Below are positions 11,980 to 22,710 of a stretch of DNA of 38,552 bases, piece by piece (position 1 is the first letter of the stretch; each line of letters opens with the position of its first letter). Origin of the DNA: a virus; the IMG/VR virus record IMGVR_UViG_3300028831_000592, positions 1 to 38,552 of that record. One strand, 5' to 3'. The notes under the pieces were generated by a model. It was given only the letters and a program-made list of their open reading frames with translations, did not search any database and had not been told where the DNA came from. The translations under genes were made by a program, and so were the position numbers.

Positions 11980-12241
11980 GGAAAAATTAACAATGAAAAT
12001 TAAGTCTGACAAAAACATAAATGATTTTCTGACAGGTATTGAAGTAGAAGATAAACTTAGAAAGCTAATTCTTTATGGATCACGTATTAATTTTTCGTGT
12101 GTTCAGATGCTGTCTAATCCACAATACCGAGATCTTACTGAAATTCTATTTAATCTTGAATTGATTAAAAATGTAACCAATACCTTAATGAAAATTCATG
12201 ACGATAATGTAGAACAGTATATAAATGCACATAGATCTTGA
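11960..12241 (+). CDS. AT-rich inserted gene (93 aa) between the duplicated terL 5' ends, function unknown
   Basis: The ATG lies 3 nt after the end of repeat copy 1. The stop overlaps the terL start at 12225. The sequence is visibly more AT-rich than its flanks. Confidence 0.5.
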   Translation: MDKEVRKEKLTMKIKSDKNINDFLTGIEVEDKLRKLILYGSRINFSCVQMLSNPQYRDLTEILFNLELIKNVTNTLMKIHDDNVEQYINAHRS

Positions 12242-13790
12242 TAAAGAGTCAATGGTCTCTGAGCTTCAAGGTAGCCTTCTTGAGTTCTGCAAAGTTTTCT
12301 ATCCCCTCCTCACTGGGCGGGATTTCATAATATCAACACCGCTAGGGAGGGAGCCTCATGCGATTACGATCTCGCGTGCGCTTACGAGAGCAGCGCGTTT
12401 ACAAATTCCGAGTCAACGACTCCTCATCGCGGTGCCCCCAGGGCACGGTAAAAGCACGTTTCTGGCTCTTTGGGTTGCTTGGACTCTTAGCATTTATCCT
12501 GACAGTCGTTATTTGTATATTAGCTATTCAAAGTCTCTTGCAGCTAAGCATACTGAAACTATTAAGCGCATTATTAGCCTTAGGCATTATCAGTATCTTT
12601 TTGACGTGTCTATACGACATGATTCGAAGGCGAAAGAGTTCTTCCAAACCAACCACGGCGGCTCCATAGCAGCTTTTGGGTCAGGAGGTGCTATAGTAGG
12701 GCAAGATGGAGGACTTCCAGGGCTGGATAGGTTCTCAGGGGCCGTTATAGTCGATGACCCGCACAAGATAGACGAGGCCCACTCGGATACCATTCGACAG
12801 AGCGTTATTGAGAATTATAGAGAGACCATACAGCAAAGAGCAAGGGGCGTGAACGTTCCCTACATATACATAGGACAGCGGGTCCATGAAGCAGACCTTG
12901 CAGCGTATCTTCTGGACGGGAAAGATGGCTACTCATGGGAGAGAGTCATCCTAAAGAGCATAGACGATGCCGGAAATGCCCTCTACCCAGAGGCATTTCC
13001 GCTTGAGTCATTATTGATTAAGCAAGAGCGTGATCCGTACGTATTCGCATCCCAATTCCAACAGAACCCAATACCCGCAGGGGGTGGCCTATTCAAGCCT
13101 GAATGGTTTGTTGTCTTGCCTAGAGAGCCTGATATCCTATTCACATTCCTAACCTGCGATACAGCCGAGACCTCAAAGAGTTGGAATGATGCCACGAGCT
13201 TCTGTTTCTGGGGAGTCTATGAGATTGAGAACTTCGGAAGAAAGACGGGGGAACTTGGGCTCCACTGGTTAGACTGTATGGAGATTAGGGTTGAGCCCAA
13301 GGACCTTAGGGACCAGTTTATCATATTCTACAGTGACTGTTGCCGGCATAAGGTCCCTCCCCTCATGGCAGCGATAGAGAAGAAATCCACTGGTGTTACG
13401 CTTATCTCCATTCTAAAAGAAATCAGAGGGCTGACTATAAGGGAGATAGAAAGGACCAGGGCATCAGGCAGCAAGACGCAGCGCTTTCTTGAAATTCAGC
13501 CCTACATAGCCTCAAAATACGTATCCTTTACTGAGGGTGCATCTCACGTAACCATGTGCATTGACCATATGACGAAAATCACGGCAAACGAATCTCATCG
13601 CCATGACGATATCGCAGATTGCGCCTGTGATGCTATAAGACTGGCGCTTATTGATAAAACGGTATACAGTATAGATAAGAAAGATAACACACGCAGTGCT
13701 ATCTTAAGTGAGCTCAACAGGAAGTTGGGTGACAAAATAACAGCAGGGAACGCTAGATATGACGAAAGAGGTAGCGGCTCGCTACGGTGA
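12225..13790 (+). CDS. terL: Terminase large subunit
   Basis: Walker A VPPGHGKST and Walker B VIVDDPHK are present. The C-terminal nuclease-like motifs are LTCDTAET and HDDIADCACDA. The protein is 521 aa and lies directly upstream of the portal gene. Confidence 0.9.
   Translation: MHIDLDKESMVSELQGSLLEFCKVFYPLLTGRDFIISTPLGREPHAITISRALTRAARLQIPSQRLLIAVPPGHGKSTFLALWVAWTLSIYPDSRYLYISYSKSLAAKHTETIKRIISLRHYQYLFDVSIRHDSKAKEFFQTNHGGSIAAFGSGGAIVGQDGGLPGLDRFSGAVIVDDPHKIDEAHSDTIRQSVIENYRETIQQRARGVNVPYIYIGQRVHEADLAAYLLDGKDGYSWERVILKSIDDAGNALYPEAFPLESLLIKQERDPYVFASQFQQNPIPAGGGLFKPEWFVVLPREPDILFTFLTCDTAETSKSWNDATSFCFWGVYEIENFGRKTGELGLHWLDCMEIRVEPKDLRDQFIIFYSDCCRHKVPPLMAAIEKKSTGVTLISILKEIRGLTIREIERTRASGSKTQRFLEIQPYIASKYVSFTEGASHVTMCIDHMTKITANESHRHDDIADCACDAIRLALIDKTVYSIDKKDNTRSAILSELNRKLGDKITAGNARYDERGSGSLR
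12240..12325 (+). repeat. 86-bp direct repeat, copy 2
   Basis: See copy 1. Confidence 0.9.
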
Positions 13791-16732: not shown

Positions 16733-17437
16733 ATGGATGAACAAGAATTAAGTGGCGGAGCCACGCCTTCTCAACCGGCTGAAAAGATGTTAAGCCAGGC
16801 TGAGGTGAATGCGATTGTAGCTCGTGAAAAACAGGCTGCAGCTGCGCGTGCACGGCAAGAAGCTGAGAGAGAGTATCAACAACGTGCTGAGCAAGCTCAA
16901 GCGCAAATGGCGCAACAGCAACCTCAGAGAGAGGAACAGCAACGCTACCCAAGCGATGCTGATGCCGATGCAATCTATCAGCAGGTCCAAGAGCGCTTCA
17001 ATAGGGAGATGCAAGAACGTCAGTTCCAATCGGAAATGACCAATGTTGCAAATGCTTATCACGCGAAGATGGACTTAGGCCGTAAAGGGTATACCGATTT
17101 CGATGAGGTGACAAAGGATTTCGATCCGACTGCATTTCCACAGCTCGTCTACTTAGTAGCAGGCGTGGAGAATGCGGGTGACATTATCTACGAACTCAGT
17201 AAGAACCCCCAAAAGCTCGTAACGCTCGATTCCTTGGCAAAGACGTCACCACGTCTTGCACAAGCTGAATTGGTGCGCCTGTCTCAGTCTATCACGCAAA
17301 ATAACGTGGCTAGAAATGAGGCACAGCAAAACCCAACTCAAGCTCCGTTATCTCCATTGCAACCTTCACGTGTATCCGGAAGCAATGGTCAGATGACGAT
17401 TCGAGATTTGCGCTCGCAGCCTTGGCTGAGAGGGTAG
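16733..17437 (+). CDS. Scaffolding protein
   Basis: It lies between portal and coat. AEVNAIVAREKQAAAARARQEAEREYQQRAEQAQAQ is typical of Q/A/E-rich helical scaffold proteins. I prefer the ATG at 16733, after GAAAGGAAGGA. Confidence 0.7.
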   Translation: MDEQELSGGATPSQPAEKMLSQAEVNAIVAREKQAAAARARQEAEREYQQRAEQAQAQMAQQQPQREEQQRYPSDADADAIYQQVQERFNREMQERQFQSEMTNVANAYHAKMDLGRKGYTDFDEVTKDFDPTAFPQLVYLVAGVENAGDIIYELSKNPQKLVTLDSLAKTSPRLAQAELVRLSQSITQNNVARNEAQQNPTQAPLSPLQPSRVSGSNGQMTIRDLRSQPWLRG

Positions 17438-17489
17438 AACGAATTTAGTTTGCCATTGCTCCACTTGTTAAACGCAAATGGAGATTGCA

Positions 17490-17930
17490 ATGTCAACTAA
17501 TAACATTTTGCAACAGGTTATTACCTATAACGAAAGTAACCTCGCGCTTCTATTAAACTCGTTCTGCTTTTTAAGCACAGCAAACAAGAAGTTTGTTGGC
17601 TTTAATGATTCGGTCCCTAAAAACTTGGGCGATACTGTATCGTTCGATTTGCCCCCTCGTTTTACCACAACGAATTCCTTGGTTGTTACATTCCAACCTG
17701 CGGTTCAAAGGGTGCAAACCTTAACGGTAAACCAACAAGTCAGCACTGCATATGAGTTCACTGCCCAACAATTTATATTCAACGTACGTGATTATATGGA
17801 ACGTTTTGGGATGTCTGCTGTGTCTGAAATTGGTACTCAGATTGAATCTAATATCGCTCAACTTGCCGAAACGAATACCTACCGTTTCTATGGAGATGGG
17901 GTGAATCCAATAAACAGTTATTTGCAGCTT
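17490..17930 (+). CDS. Major capsid (coat) protein, P22-like, exon 1
   Basis: The ATG at 17490 is preceded by GGAGA. The reading frame is interrupted by the intron, and the proposed exon end is after U17930 (...NSYLQL). Confidence 0.75.
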
Positions 17931-18179
17931 TGCGACAGTAGAGCCGCTGCTTAGTAATAAGCAGATGAAACCGGGTGAACTCAGGGGAAGTCTCAAGTAG
18001 ACAATCCTGATCTAAGCCTCGAAAGAGGAAAGAGCAACGACTAGAGAGAAATCTCGTACACTCAAGTGAGTGGAAGTGCCCGGCCCCTGAATCAGGGTGA
18101 AGATATAGTCTAATCTACCAGGCGACTGGTAGCTGCCGAAAGGCGGGTTAGGATTAACGACCTTAACTGAATATAAATG
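17931..18179 (+). ncRNA. Group I self-splicing intron, ORF-less, with a T4 td-like (IA2-type) core
   Basis: Paired stems are P2 17947-52/17959-64, P3 17971-75/18079-83 and P4 17981-85/18006-10. P6 18017-20/18025-28 has a GAAA loop and P8 is 18085-89/18093-97. P9 18115-21/18126-32 has a GCGA loop and P9.1 18133-37/18142-46 has a GAAA loop. Conserved strings are GTAGACAATCC, AGATATAGTC and the 3' end GATTAACGACCTTAACTGAATATAAATG. The intron ends in G. Confidence 0.8.
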
Positions 18180-18986
18180 GCAAATGCACTAGCCTTCTTC
18201 CGTAACTACGGCGCTGCTGTAATGGATACCAAGGGCTTCTTATCGGATTTAACATTCCCACTAATCGTAAACTCTGGCTTAAATCAATTTACGCTTAACC
18301 GTGGTAATGAAGAGGCTATGTCATGGGAAATCGGCGAATTCAGCAATTGCGAATGGTACCAATCTAACCTTCTTAAGACCCACATTGCAGGTACTGAAGG
18401 CCAACAAGCTTCTGTATTAACGGTTGTTTCTACTACTTTAGATGCTAATGGTGCCGTTATTGCTATTACCTTTAGTGGTACGAATGCAGCTAATGATGTT
18501 AACTCTGTTAAGGCTTATGACAAGTTCATGTTTAGTGATGGTGTATCTGGCCAACCTAACATGCGTTATTTAACTTTCATAGGTCATAAGGTCTCTCAAA
18601 ACCCTGTGCAGTTCCGCGCTACAGCAGATGCAGGTTCAACAGCCGGTTCTCAAGTAACGGTCAATATCTTCCCTCCATTGCAAGTTAATGCAGGCCAAGA
18701 TCAAAACATCAACAACCCAATCGTTGCTGGTATGCAGGTAACCGTTCTTCCAAGCCATAGATGCGGCTTAATTTACTCCGGTAACCCATTGTTCCTAGCG
18801 ATGCCAAGGCTACCAGAAGAAGTTCCATACCCAACTGCGATTGCGACCGACCCAGACTCAGGTGCCTCTTTAAGAAGCTACTACGGGTCATTGTTCGGTC
18901 AAAACCAACGTGGTTATGTAACCGATTGCATCTGGGGGTCTACATTGGTAGACGAATACGCTATGATGGTGGCACTTCCTGTGTAA
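18180..18986 (+). CDS. Major capsid (coat) protein, P22-like, exon 2
   Basis: In-frame TGA and TAA lie just upstream (18168-70 and 18174-76). The spliced product is 415 aa, with the junction reading ...INSYLQL|ANALAFFRNYG.... The C-terminus YGSLFGQNQRGYVTDCIWGSTLV resembles the P22 coat C-terminus. Confidence 0.75.
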   Translation, partial: ANALAFFRNYGAAVMDTKGFLSDLTFPLIVNSGLNQFTLNRGNEEAMSWEIGEFSNCEWYQSNLLKTHIAGTEGQQASVLTVVSTTLDANGAVIAITFSGTNAANDVNSVKAYDKFMFSDGVSGQPNMRYLTFIGHKVSQNPVQFRATADAGSTAGSQVTVNIFPPLQVNAGQDQNINNPIVAGMQVTVLPSHRCGLIYSGNPLFLAMPRLPEEVPYPTAIATDPDSGASLRSYYGSLFGQNQRGYVTDCIWGSTLVDEYAMMVALPV

Positions 18987-19041
18987 CCCATATTGGGCTT
19001 TTTGAGATATAATGTCGTTTTCTAACCAATAGGAGACGACA

Positions 19042-19611
19042 ATGACCGAAAGTAGTAAAGAAGTATATGTTGGTAGAGCAGATATGGGGAGCGGTAGAAG
19101 TCCTTTTTGCTCAACGTGTAGGCAGCTTAAAGAACCTGGTCGTGAAAACGAAAGCAGGTGCAAAAAATGCAAAAGTGATGCTAATAAGGCACGAAGAGCA
19201 AGAAAACGGGAAGAGAAGGGAATGCCTCCTTTCAATTCAGGACGAAAGCCAGAATGTTGCAGATGCGGTGGTCCGAAAGAAGTTTTGACTGCTGGATATT
19301 GTAACAAATGCCATAGTTATAAGGCTAGGGCCAGAAGAAAGGTAAACAGAGAAAGTGCTATATTTATTGAAAATGAGAGAAATAAAGTTAATGAAAGATA
19401 TAGAAACGATCCTGATTTTGCGCTTAAAAAGCTTGTTAGAGCTGCTACCAATAAATGCATCAAAGCTGGAATTTTGGTTAAAAAGCCCTGTGAGGTATGC
19501 GGGAATAAAAAGGTTGATGCACATCATGATGACTATCAGAAACCATTGGATGTTAGGTGGCTTTGTAGGCTTCATCATGTTGAACATCATAGAAACGAAC
19601 TTAATAAATAG
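19042..19611 (+). CDS. Free-standing HNH-type endonuclease with two N-terminal zinc-ribbon/basic repeats
   Basis: The C-terminus CEVCGNKKVDAHHDDYQKPLDVRWLCRLHHVEHHR matches the C..CG...v.aHH.DY.KPL.V.WLC..CH..H pattern seen in phage HNH proteins. The N-terminal repeats are CSTC..CKKC and CCRC..CNKC, each followed by a K/R-rich segment. Confidence 0.7.
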   Translation: MTESSKEVYVGRADMGSGRSPFCSTCRQLKEPGRENESRCKKCKSDANKARRARKREEKGMPPFNSGRKPECCRCGGPKEVLTAGYCNKCHSYKARARRKVNRESAIFIENERNKVNERYRNDPDFALKKLVRAATNKCIKAGILVKKPCEVCGNKKVDAHHDDYQKPLDVRWLCRLHHVEHHRNELNK

Positions 19612-19620
19612 GAGACTAAA

Positions 19621-20370
19621 ATGTCTGTAAACACCCCAATTGTGAATGCCCGCGTAGCTTACGTGAATGGCCTTCAACTCGCATGGGTTAGCACTACGAC
19701 CTTTACAATGGCCGCCGGTGCTGCCTCTAATAGCAATGATATCAATGACATCGTTCTTCCTGCTTTAGTAACCAACACGATTACTTCAGTTGGGCCTAAC
19801 GGTGTTGATATCGCTGCTGCTGTAGCTAGCTCATTCTACGCTGTTTATGTCATTGGTGACTCAACGGGTTATCAACCTACAGCTAGTTTGATCTCATTAG
19901 ACCTATCGGTTCCTTCATTGCCTTTTAACTACGATATGTACCGTCGTGTAGGTTTCATCCTAACTGACAGTTCATCTCATGTTCTTAAGTTCTGGCAATA
20001 TGGAAATGGTAGCTTAAAAGATATGTGGTATGACACACCTATCGCAACACCAGCCATCACGACAGCGACAAGCTACTCAACTCAATCGTTAGCAGCAGGT
20101 GTTCCTCCTATTGTATGTGAGGCATTTTTAGCTGTGAATTATGGAGCTGTAGCAGCGTCTGATGTCGTTAGCCTTGCTCCTTATGGCTCAACACCTTCTG
20201 TAGCGATGATTACCCTAGGTTCTGGTGTAGCACTTGCCACTTCAGATCAATTCTACTCGGTAGTTGTTCCGTCGGCTCTGCATAGCGGTGTTCCAACCAT
20301 TGAGCATAAGGAAACTTCAGCGTCAGATACATTGGCTATTTCTGTCGCTGGATATAGAGATAGCTTATAA
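19621..20370 (+). CDS. Virion structural protein, function unknown
   Basis: A 249-aa ORF in the structural operon with an AGGAGA RBS. It is S/T/A/V-rich and looks beta-rich. Confidence 0.6.
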   Translation: MSVNTPIVNARVAYVNGLQLAWVSTTTFTMAAGAASNSNDINDIVLPALVTNTITSVGPNGVDIAAAVASSFYAVYVIGDSTGYQPTASLISLDLSVPSLPFNYDMYRRVGFILTDSSSHVLKFWQYGNGSLKDMWYDTPIATPAITTATSYSTQSLAAGVPPIVCEAFLAVNYGAVAASDVVSLAPYGSTPSVAMITLGSGVALATSDQFYSVVVPSALHSGVPTIEHKETSASDTLAISVAGYRDSL

Positions 20371-20382
20371 AGGAGATCTCCT

Positions 20383-21093
20383 ATGGCTTATACAACGAAT
20401 CAACTCATAACAAACGCATTCTATTCCTCTGGTGTTGTTTCACGTGAGTTTGAAACGGTCAGTGGACAGCAGATAGGAGATGGCCTCTCTTGGCTTAACC
20501 AAATCATTGATGAGAAGGTGGTAGACGATGGAATGATTCCATACGAAAGCACCTATACATTCAATGCAGTACCAGGCCAAGAGATTTACTTTATACCGAA
20601 CCTTATTCAGATTGATACCTTAGTGTTCTTCCTGAATACGGTTCGATTCTCAATGATGTACAACAAGCGAAATAATTACTTTGGATCTAACCGCGTACAA
20701 AACATTAGGACGCTTCCTTATCAGTGGTACTTTGAAAGACAATTGCATGGTGGAAATCTATATATTTATTTCTCACCAGACCAAGCCTACCCAATGGAGC
20801 TTCACGGGACCTTTAGGCTTCCTGAGGTGACATTGGGTCAGGATTTAACGCTAACGTTGGATATGTTCTATATCACCTATCTGGTATATGCGTTAGCCGA
20901 TAGAATTTGTGCCGAATATAATTATGTAACACCGCCTGGAGTTACCAGGCAATTGGGTAAATATGAAGGATGGATTGATAAGAAATCTAGGTTATTGGAT
21001 TTGAGGCTTGAGAAGGTTTCATGCTTGAATAGCCATACAACTACCTATTCTTGGTCGTACATAAACTTGGGCCGAGGTTTCACTCCACCGTAA
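20383..21093 (+). CDS. Virion structural protein, possibly a head-tail adaptor by position (P22 gp4 position)
   Basis: A 236-aa ORF directly upstream of the gp10-like gene. The assignment rests on position only. Confidence 0.5.
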   Translation: MAYTTNQLITNAFYSSGVVSREFETVSGQQIGDGLSWLNQIIDEKVVDDGMIPYESTYTFNAVPGQEIYFIPNLIQIDTLVFFLNTVRFSMMYNKRNNYFGSNRVQNIRTLPYQWYFERQLHGGNLYIYFSPDQAYPMELHGTFRLPEVTLGQDLTLTLDMFYITYLVYALADRICAEYNYVTPPGVTRQLGKYEGWIDKKSRLLDLRLEKVSCLNSHTTTYSWSYINLGRGFTPP

Positions 21094-21120
21094 AAATGCT
21101 GATATAATCAGGGAATTTGA

Positions 21121-22710
21121 ATGTCGACAGAATTAGCGCAACAAGCCCCCGTTAACGTAGCAGGCTCCAGTAAGTTTGGAATTTGGCCCAAGATTAATCT
21201 TGAGAAAACGTATAACATGTACATTTCTGATAACTGGATGATATCTTTTCCTGGCTATAAAAAAATTGCCTTAGAAGCCTTAACAGGAGAAGGTAGAGCT
21301 ATATTTCGCTCTGTTCGTGGTGGATTTTTAATAGCGGTCATAGGTTCTGGAGTCTACCGATTAAATGCAAATCTAGCCCCAATATTCATAAGCAATATTG
21401 ACACAGTGCGTGGAGAGGTTTTTATAGATGAGAACCTCCTAGGTCAAATATGCTTAGTGGATGGAACGAAAGCCTACATATACTCTTATGCAAGTGGAAG
21501 CTTCACAACTCAGGATTTGAGAGATGAAAATAATAATCCAATAGTTCCAAACTACGTTTCCTATCACAATACTTTCTTTTTGATTTCGTCTTCAAAGACA
21601 AGTCAGAGCAACCAGAACTGGTATGCTTTTGAATGGGCATCAGATACCACTATTTCCGTTTTCTCTACTCAGTCTATATCTACCAAGCCAGATACAGCAA
21701 TCGCCGCTAGACGCATTCCAGGGCGCGGAAACAACGTGATTGTCCTTGGAGAGTCCGTATCTGAAATCTGGACCTTCACAGGCGCCGAGCCAGTTGCCGG
21801 GGTTGATAGAACCTATACCAGGGTATCGTCCTATAACATCGATAATGGCTGTATCAGCGTTTCAACCATTGCAGCAGGCGAGGATACCATAGCTTGGCTA
21901 GCTGTAAATGAGGTTAACTCTCCCGTCATCATGGTAACCAATGGAGCCGAAACGCGCCAGATATCAACCGACGGTATTGATCACCTTATGGAAAGCATTA
22001 AGTTTCCAGAACAATCTACTGCGTTCTTCTTCCGGCAAAATGGACACCTATTTTATCAGTTAACATTCTTTAACCCCGTCGATAATCTAACTCTAATTCA
22101 TGATTTTACGAATAATCAGTTCTACCATTTATCAGATGAGAACCTTAACTATCATATAGCTCGAGATATTGTTTACTTTAATGAGAGGTCATACTTTGTC
22201 TCGCTCAAGGATGCTTCTATCTATGAAATTGCAGACCAATATAATACTTATAGCTATTCGACTGCCAAAGACGATGTTGGCTTAACCATTCCTAGGATAC
22301 GTATATGCAAGACAATTAGAAAGGAAGATTCCTCAACCTTTAGGTGTGGAATGTTCACCTTTTGGATAGAGCAGGGCGTTAATAATTTCTTCGATGCGGG
22401 TGAATGCGATGGGGAAATGATAACCGAAATTACCGAACAAATAATGATAAGCGAAAGCGGCTTTACCATGCTAGACGAACAGGGATTCTGCCCTCCAGAG
22501 ATTGATGTACCGCGCGTTGATATGTCCTTCTCAAAGAACGGTAACGAATCATTTAGCAATTTCGTAGGTAGAGATTTGCAACCCATGGCTCATTTTAGAA
22601 ATCAAATACGCTGGCATAGAATTGGTCAGGCAAATGAGATTACAATTCAATTGAGATTCTGGGGCTTAAATCGCTTCGTGGTTCAAGATGGCGTTTTGGA
22701 GATGTATTAA
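21121..22710 (+). CDS. Packaged-DNA stabilisation / tail hub protein (P22 gp10-like)
   Basis: 529 aa. SFPGYKKIALEALTGEGRAIFRSVRGG..VYRL and the C-terminal IRWHRIGQANEITIQLRFWG parallel P22 gp10 segments as I recall them. Confidence 0.6.
   Translation: MSTELAQQAPVNVAGSSKFGIWPKINLEKTYNMYISDNWMISFPGYKKIALEALTGEGRAIFRSVRGGFLIAVIGSGVYRLNANLAPIFISNIDTVRGEVFIDENLLGQICLVDGTKAYIYSYASGSFTTQDLRDENNNPIVPNYVSYHNTFFLISSSKTSQSNQNWYAFEWASDTTISVFSTQSISTKPDTAIAARRIPGRGNNVIVLGESVSEIWTFTGAEPVAGVDRTYTRVSSYNIDNGCISVSTIAAGEDTIAWLAVNEVNSPVIMVTNGAETRQISTDGIDHLMESIKFPEQSTAFFFRQNGHLFYQLTFFNPVDNLTLIHDFTNNQFYHLSDENLNYHIARDIVYFNERSYFVSLKDASIYEIADQYNTYSYSTAKDDVGLTIPRIRICKTIRKEDSSTFRCGMFTFWIEQGVNNFFDAGECDGEMITEITEQIMISESGFTMLDEQGFCPPEIDVPRVDMSFSKNGNESFSNFVGRDLQPMAHFRNQIRWHRIGQANEITIQLRFWGLNRFVVQDGVLEMY

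Follow-up and report, generated by a model that had tools for sequence, protein, structure and literature searches.

An HNH-like nuclease gene beside an intron-bearing coat gene of an uncultured podovirus is probably a selfish cassette independent of the intron

Does a free-standing nuclease gene directly behind an intron-bearing coat gene serve the spread of that intron, or does it travel on its own account? The question is raised by IMG/VR virus record IMGVR_UViG_3300028831_000592, an entire 38.5-kb metagenomic contig from the Joint Genome Institute (JGI) that was analysed over its full 38,552 nucleotides (nt) and is called the window here. Its major head (coat) gene is interrupted by a group I intron, and 55 nt after the coat stop codon begins an open reading frame (ORF) of 189 amino acids (aa), 19042..19611, which carries the HNH-like motif CEVCGN..VDAHHDDYQKPLDVRWLCRLHHVEHH and is identical to database protein P0001; it is referred to below as the nuclease gene. 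A sequence-only reading of the locus had reported this gene, its motif and its spacing correctly, and had proposed that intron and nuclease spread together by collaborative homing. Comparison with related phages points elsewhere: with a probability of roughly 0.6, the gene is a free-standing, selfish cassette of homing-endonuclease-like character, which recombination spreads or replaces at the slot between the coat gene and the next gene, independently of the intron.

Relatives were gathered in three ways: by coat protein (from IMG/VR and metagenomes, unbiased as to the nuclease), by nuclease family, and by exact look-up of the closest nuclease homologues; the one scan of metagenomes added few new lineages. 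After de-duplication this gave 69 distinct related podovirus lineages in which both the coat junction and the downstream slot could be scored. The slot proves to be polymorphic for presence and absence at one precise intergenic site. A nuclease homologue is present in 35 lineages, always exactly between the coat gene and the next gene, with coat proteins 42-87% identical to that of the window; in the other 34 the gene is missing and the two neighbours are 12-94 nt apart, so that it does interrupt an otherwise contiguous structural operon, as had been noticed from the window itself. Among the lineages sampled by coat protein, 34 of 37 are without it. The spacer of the HNH-less relatives usually contains a terminator-like hairpin, followed by the ribosome-binding site (RBS) and start of the homologue of the window's next structural gene (19621..20370, 249 aa, unknown function). 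All of the ~45 full-length homologues in IMG/VR lie between the coat gene and this same neighbour. Across a broad group of podoviruses whose portal is of the P22 type, the nuclease family thus keeps to this one fixed intergenic position. Both edges of the cassette can be placed in the window, where all features described are on the plus strand: on the left, the 55-nt spacer 18987..19041 replaces the hairpin-containing spacer of HNH-less relatives, and on the right the cassette runs up to the next gene's RBS (AAATAGGAGACTAAAATG), the HNH stop codon lying within the AGGAGA (19609-19616).

The gene moves as a unit, a cassette whose exchange does not follow that of its flanking genes and whose left edge is sharp, at the coat stop codon. 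Nuclease identity is nearly uncorrelated with coat identity (rho 0.16-0.21; 30-34 distinct carriers) and with next-gene identity (rho 0.13), as against a rho of 0.76 for coat versus next gene. Individual pairs of relatives, denoted here by L numbers, are more striking still. Between L084 and L108 the DNA is 93-100% identical through the coat gene, drops to ~40% exactly at the coat stop codon, partly regains identity in the catalytic domain and reaches 73-85% in the next gene; the two nucleases are 42% identical. L036 and L143 are 94% identical in the coat and 34% in the nuclease, and for L003 and L051 the values are 95% and 56%. Point mutation cannot yield such identity breaks; recombination that replaces the cassette can. 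In other phages, homing endonuclease genes (HEGs) are concentrated around capsid and terminase genes and coincide with boundaries of recombination (PMC10448857).

How might such a cassette move? The encoded protein would cut related genomes that lack the cassette, or that hold another variant of it, near the slot, and the cassette would then be copied in by recombinational repair, a form of intron-less homing. Free-standing HEGs are known to cut at sites that lie hundreds to thousands of bp away from the gene itself, and to use a promoter/hairpin logic for their expression (PMC2988022).

What, then, is the place of the intron? The coat gene was rightly said to contain an intron without an ORF: the 249-nt group I intron at 17931..18179 (Rfam RF00028, 77.5 bits, E=3.6e-18) separates exon 1 (17490..17930; phrog_283, major head protein) from exon 2 (18180..18986, including the TAA stop at 18984-18986). 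The coat ORF opens at 17478, and the likely start is the ATG at 17490, which has GGAGA (17480-84) ahead of it; relatives align from residue 2-9 on. Joining 17930 to 18180 gives a 419-aa coat protein that is 83% identical, with no gaps, to the uninterrupted 418-aa homologue of an uncultured Caudovirales phage (LR796232.1, L001), and this gapless alignment sets the intron bounds and the junction SYLQL|ANALA. Capsid-gene introns are already known, for example in Tuc2009 and LittleE (PMC3706429).

In collaborative homing, the HNH protein would cut intron-less coat alleles at or near ..CAGCTT|GCAAATGCA.., the intron would protect its carrier and the two would spread jointly. The anatomy that this requires is there: an ORF-less group I intron interrupts a conserved peptide, and the free-standing nuclease gene stands 1.1 kb further downstream. 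There are precedents in F-CphI/psbA and T3-like phages (PMC6083498, PMC10448857) and in mobE/I-TevIII (PMC2790892). One more lineage, L036/L035, has the same intron together with an HNH gene in the slot, and the odds ratio among coat-sampled lineages is above 1, the HNH gene being found in 1/2 lineages with the intron at the window's site and in 2/35 without it there. The wider distribution argues the other way. In 33 of the 35 HNH-carrying lineages the coat gene is uninterrupted, and these include the five closest relatives of the window's nuclease (L168, 73% identity; L001/L002, 69%; L169, 63%; L170, 62%; L171, 57%), which all follow coat genes of 414-418 codons. Besides the window, only L036/L035 and L037 have the intron at the window's position, which makes 2/35 HNH-positive and 1/34 HNH-negative lineages. 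L036 is the only other genome with both elements and its nuclease is just 37% identical to that of the window, so that a different nuclease is present in each of the two joint occurrences. In L037 the same intron stands without a nuclease gene inside 5 kb.

The same intron family is also found at a second coat site, after residue 51 (L027 5145-5391, L028, L151 3148-3394), with an Rfam score of 75 bits, a core ~85-90% identical and a different 5' end (P1/guide region). Again no nuclease gene is nearby in L027 and L151, which indicates that the ORF-less intron moved between two sites of one gene. In total, three of the five intron-bearing lineages have no nuclease-like gene within ~5 kb, and an exact-pattern search for the intron core in IMG/VR recovered only the five contigs already known. 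One-sided Fisher tests of intron against HNH gene gave p=0.51 for all lineages, 0.16 for the coat-sampled ones and 0.28-0.53 for the close clade, with a range of 0.16-0.75 over every sampling frame, although five intron lineages make the test a weak one. Relatives therefore carry the nuclease gene beside intron-less coat genes, at a frequency that is not elevated with the intron, which is the outcome that the sequence-only reading had itself counted against its proposal. At the intron insertion site, no HNH-correlated sequence pattern was found, only scattered synonymous differences, and the protein is not demonstrably of the F-CphI/EndoVII type. Collaborative homing is unsupported by the distribution, rather than disproved for the window's phage, and is improbable; most likely the ORF-less intron 1.1 kb upstream is a separate mobile element that shares the genome by coincidence, in a region rich in mobile elements.

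The C-terminal block of the family reads PCEVCG..(V/E)AHHDDYxKPLDVRWLCRxHHxEHH. In an alignment of 55 homologues C150-x2-C153, H161 H162 D163, R172, C175-x2-H178 H179 and H183 are invariant or nearly so, the fully invariant positions being C150, E151, C153, H161, H162, D163, Y165, P168, R172, L174, C175 and H179. C150-x2-C153 and C175-x2-H178 correspond to the two structural-zinc Cys/His pairs that flank the finger, and one family member (P0072) has the canonical LCxxCH, C-x2-C-H. The AlphaFold2 model (predicted local distance difference test, pLDDT, 91.5 for the whole protein and 93.4 for the C-terminal domain) predicts a beta-beta-alpha metal finger at 19489..19605, a placement with which residue conservation and matches in the BFVD database agree: strands 159-162 and 171-174 are followed by helix 176-188, H161/H162 sit on strand 1 of the beta-hairpin, H179/H183 on the next helix and the Cys/His pairs at the base. 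The predicted structure thus has the layout of a His-Me finger (beta-hairpin and helix, with His on strand 1 and on the helix), and the modelled architecture of the domain is that of a zinc-stabilised His-Me finger. The EndoVII/'DHHRN' motif of F-CphI, CxxC..DHDH..R..CxxC-N (PMC6083498), is paralleled by CxxC..HH..R..CxxH-H, which has no central Asn.

At the N-terminus, members of the family have between one and five zinc ribbons of the pattern CxxC-x(12-15)-CxxC, with a basic helix behind each of them. The window protein has two, as the earlier reading had recognised: ribbon 1 (19108..19170; C23, C26, C40, C43) with a basic helix at residues 41-58, and ribbon 2 (19255..19311; C72, C75, C87, C90) with a basic helix at residues 88-102. 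The two repeats are 41% identical over 41 aa (E=1e-4), their eight cysteines are invariant in the 55 homologues, and both are present in the AlphaFold2 model. The zinc-ribbon/basic-helix modules would serve DNA recognition, and the C-terminal finger would be the nuclease.

Database comparisons give a mixed picture. PHROG profiles match the protein (phrog_2340 'endonuclease', 8e-15; phrog_11793, 1.8e-9; phrog_2255 'HNH endonuclease', 8e-4), and a Foldseek search of BFVD returned, at template modelling (TM) scores of 0.8-0.9, viral proteins entered as 'Recombination endonuclease VII' (E 1.6e-4) or as 'HNHc domain containing protein' (E 4e-6, TM 0.91; E 1.7e-4), names that rest on depositor annotation. 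There are 749 full-length database relatives, without a precomputed Pfam domain; the C-terminal block alone occurs in >4,000 proteins, among which UniRef lists one as 'HNH endonuclease', and matches confined to this domain are found in unrelated contexts in many cultured phages. Homologues in cultured phages labelled 'endonuclease VII' or 'HNH restriction endonuclease' provide no transitive link, because they too have no Pfam match. The expectation that a profile search would assign the protein to an HNH family was thus borne out by PHROGs, motif and predicted fold and not by Pfam or NCBIfam; with PHROG and BFVD in favour and Pfam, the Protein Data Bank (PDB) and hhalign not, the protein is HNH-like by motif and predicted fold and belongs to no curated family. 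The gene's description as a free-standing, HNH-like nuclease-type gene with a predicted zinc-bound beta-beta-alpha finger is supported. Its composition is distinct (18800-19700 in the window): GC content is 0.40-0.43, compared with ~0.44-0.45 in the neighbours, GC skew +0.21 and AT skew +0.19, compared with values near 0. Such a composition is consistent with a protein that is rich in Lys, Arg and Glu and has a separate origin.

The leader of the gene carries signs of the expression control known from homing endonuclease genes. A TATAAT -10-like box lies at 19008..19013, as first noted, with no acceptable -35, and a sigma-70 scan does not call it. Among the relatives, 28 of 33 cassette spacers have a -10 box matching at least 5/6 positions (17.9 expected by shuffling), 12 of them with a perfect TATAAT, and in 19 of the 28 the box starts 34-42 nt ahead of the ATG. 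Downstream of it, a 12-bp RNA hairpin (UGUCGUUUUCUA / UAGGAGACGACA; 19013..19041, stem 19013-19024 / 19030-19041) ends one base before the ATG and pairs the whole Shine-Dalgarno (SD) sequence AGGAG (19031-19035). The hairpin had been described as weak: the RBS is indeed paired, but the structure is not weak, the minimum free energy of 18987-19050 being -17.5 kcal/mol (z -3.2; 3/200 shuffles equally stable), and its ACGAC lies at 19036-40 instead of 19035-39.

Comparable structures recur in relatives. The 48 nt upstream of nuclease starts have a median of -12.7 kcal/mol (z -3.0), compared with -5.3 (z -0.14) for next-gene starts (p=5.5e-6). In these stems the SD is paired by an anti-SD, which reads CUCC, CCCU or UUUCU, and the stem sequence varies by cassette: besides UGUCGUUUUCUA/UAGGAGACGACA in the window, there are AUCGCCUUC/GGAGGCGAU in L168, UGUUGC/GCAACA in L002 and UGCCGU/ACGGCA in L143. 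When SD accessibility was computed for the 18 cassettes whose -10 box is well placed, the median probability of an unpaired SD was 0.00 in read-through RNA and 0.63 in RNA that begins 7 nt past the box (p=3e-4); in the window the probability rises from 0.00 to 0.36. In read-through coat transcripts the RBS would therefore stay paired and the nuclease gene silent, as these computed structures suggest, and transcripts from the cassette's own promoter, lacking the 5' hairpin arm, would be translated, as for T4 I-TevI, segB and Aeh1 mobE. The resemblance to translational control of phage homing endonucleases that had been noted in the window is strengthened by this recurrence of -10 box and anti-SD hairpin with different stems. 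Promoter/hairpin control is documented for T4 I-TevI/II/III, segB and Aeh1 mobE, and the device is not unique to nuclease genes (PMC2988022).

Two further hairpins lie nearby. Right after the coat stop, 18987-19003 forms a small terminator-like hairpin (CCCATATTGGG followed by CTTTTT), which may be a weak terminator or attenuator; longer hairpins occur at that spot in HNH-less relatives, for example TTGCGACGCA..TGCGTCGCAA in L009, L005, L033 and L007. The coat gene's own RBS and start also lie within a stable hairpin (window 17445-17500: -16.2 kcal/mol, z -3.2, 0/200 shuffles equally stable), and coat starts of relatives are likewise structured, with the SD paired in most. The use of an RBS hairpin as a diagnostic of the nuclease gene was rejected, as the coat gene start has one too.

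Several observations weigh against a selfish homing-endonuclease-like cassette. On the side of expression, the -10 box is without a -35, and SD-pairing hairpins also precede the coat gene in these phages and so are not nuclease-specific. On the side of the protein, Pfam gave no HNH or His-Me match at E<=1 in the protein or in any of the 55 family members, and no HNH model of NCBIfam matches it. Sequence and profile searches of the PDB returned nothing significant, the best being 9qgx, 'Nicking endonuclease', at E=1.2. With the domain model, Foldseek against the PDB reached the HNH nucleases Cap5, type I-E HNH Cascade and P1 Ref, which are among its top hits, only at E 0.8-2.8, which is not significant, and hhalign of the domain profile with T4 EndoVII and 10 Pfam-verified EndoVII-type domains from related loci was likewise not significant. 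As to distribution, a position that stays fixed down to a coat protein identity of only 42% could also reflect an accessory gene of ancestral origin, lost many times. (9qgx_A / 9qgv_A, 148 aa, is the sole solved structure that shares the helix and the CxxCG..H ... LCxHHxxxH pattern, at a non-significant E=1.2-9.2.)

The missing matches to curated HNH models, together with the absence of the central Asn of the HNH motif, would be explained if the protein were no nuclease at all: a zinc-binding, nucleic-acid-binding protein, such as a regulator or an RNA-binding factor, whose C-terminal treble-clef-like finger merely resembles HNH. The best PDB neighbours of the domain model by E-value are indeed non-catalytic zinc fingers (HDAC6 ZnF-UBP, ClpG N-domain); searching with the whole model was uninformative because it is an elongated multi-domain chain. 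This explanation is nevertheless highly improbable, given the invariant HH-D...R...C-x2-H-H on a predicted beta-beta-alpha scaffold, parallel to the EndoVII/DHHRN motif (PMC6083498), the significant BFVD matches to HNHc- and EndoVII-annotated proteins, the PHROG endonuclease matches and the HEG-like behaviour of the cassette.

The strictly kept position across very divergent phages bears on another alternative, in which the gene is a domesticated accessory nuclease, kept in the late operon because it helps the phage by excluding co-infecting relatives, by degrading host or satellite DNA, or in packaging, like HK97 gp74. Catalytic-type invariant residues are intact in every homologue examined and expression appears regulated, both of which would suit such a role, and homing and domesticated functions are not mutually exclusive (PMC10448857). 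Domestication is unlikely all the same. Absence from 34/69 lineages, and from 34/37 of those sampled by coat protein, marks the gene as dispensable; it lies ~5 kb from the terminase gene (12225-13790, upstream) and does not adjoin it; no PADLOC defence model matches; and the swap by very divergent variants in near-identical genomes is typical of selfish cassettes.

The selfish cassette thus remains the preferred account, and in that case the gene, taken by itself, is a selfish element of an ordinary kind. Phage structural modules with free-standing HNH genes, capsid-gene introns, collaborative homing and promoter/hairpin control are all already known; what is new is a well-defined family, missed by curated models, with zinc-ribbon arrays and a strict slot preference. 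Free-standing homing endonucleases shape the mosaicism of phage genomes and few families have been characterised, mostly in T4-like phages. A Pfam-type model of the C-terminal domain would better phage annotation. A bolder proposal is speculative and doubtful as a whole: the family would be an uncharacterised class of homing endonuclease in which one to five zinc-ribbon/basic-helix modules read the target, variants would compete for a single slot by cutting sites that are empty or held by a rival, and in the sub-lineage of the window the nuclease would also cut the intron-less coat junction. Were this true, the population would capture collaborative homing, or HEG turnover, as it arises. Close relatives show all four combinations of intron and nuclease, and these natural intron+/-, nuclease+/- relatives are a panel for testing whether collaborative homing or nuclease turnover lies behind ORF-less introns beside nuclease genes.

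The surroundings of the cassette are those of a head-morphogenesis region, with the gene order large terminase, portal, likely scaffold protein, head protein, two proteins of unknown function and head closure protein Hc3; a megablast search of 17000-21000 against GenBank phages gave no match. A second nuclease slot lies between the homologues of 20383-21093 and 21121-22710, and is empty in the window (21094-21120). In at least 10 relatives it holds genes of 180-255 aa whose products begin with zinc ribbons and end in a Pfam Endonuclease_7 domain (E 1e-18 to 1e-20), the F-CphI-like 'DHHRN' architecture; it is filled in L017 (3811-4449), L038 (6400-7149), L052-L054, L063 (two in tandem), L073, L083, L089, L092 and L098. 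Other genes of the region vary as well. The next gene, homologous to 19621-20370, is far more variable than the coat gene and is found in tandem, with three copies each in L144 (4326-6649), L154 (4373-6716) and L027 (6601-8947) and two in L037/L138, L070 and L151. Homologues of the 236-aa gene 20383-21093 are split after residue 155 by in-frame insertions of ~320-700 nt in L061 (1988-2305), L081, L034/L156, L063 and L029 (7536-8240). Rfam finds no group I intron in these insertions and Pfam no domain in the inserted translation; they could be mini-inteins, domain insertions or unrecognised introns. In L170 a gene for a sigma-70-like factor (97-726; Pfam Sigma70_r2/r4) lies between the portal and scaffold genes.

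How does the locus compare with known systems? Its anatomy is that of the F-CphI/psbA intron of cyanophage S-PM2 and of the T3-like DNA polymerase intron with its free-standing HNH gene: an ORF-less group I intron in a conserved gene, and a gene for a nuclease of the beta-beta-alpha type directly downstream of the intron-bearing gene (PMC6083498, PMC10448857). Unlike in those systems, intron and nuclease are not co-distributed here and 1.1 kb separates the nuclease gene from the insertion site; moreover, no membership of the EndoVII/DHHRN group, to which F-CphI belongs, is detectable for the protein, and the true Endonuclease_7, F-CphI-like genes of these phages occupy another slot. Trans-homing by T4 mobE and I-TevIII likewise involves an HNH gene that stands free, near an intron without a working endonuclease of its own, and a mobE-type nuclease could mobilise the intron by co-conversion (PMC2790892); in contrast, the intron described here is also found without any nearby nuclease gene. 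The packaging HNH proteins of the HK97 gp74 type are also small, HNH-like and encoded in the head-morphogenesis region, whereas the present gene is beside neither a terminase gene nor a cos site and is absent from most close relatives, and from 34/69 lineages overall.

The seg and mob genes of T4-like phages resemble the cassette in several respects: they too are inserted between genes, beside a neighbour that is essential and conserved (in T4, segD is found between capsid genes 23 and 24), are present in some relatives and absent from others, and have a modular build from a DNA-binding part and a small nuclease domain. With these genes, as with I-TevI, segB and Aeh1 mobE, the cassette also shares a putative promoter sited so that only the gene's own transcripts would escape the RBS hairpin (PMC2988022). 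They differ in that the catalytic domain is here missed by Pfam HNH models, the DNA-binding part is made of one to five zinc-ribbon/basic-helix repeats and the box looks like a host-type -10 rather than a T4 late promoter. The HEG islands of ICP1 and other phages (Barth et al. 2023, PMC10448857) also have a nuclease gene beside a capsid gene, sharp identity breaks at the nuclease gene and nuclease variants (30-40% identical) that replace one another at one locus. The nucleases of those islands come from other families (T5orf172, IPA-HNH, HNH_3), and the cassette described here belongs to uncultured podoviruses known from metagenomes only.

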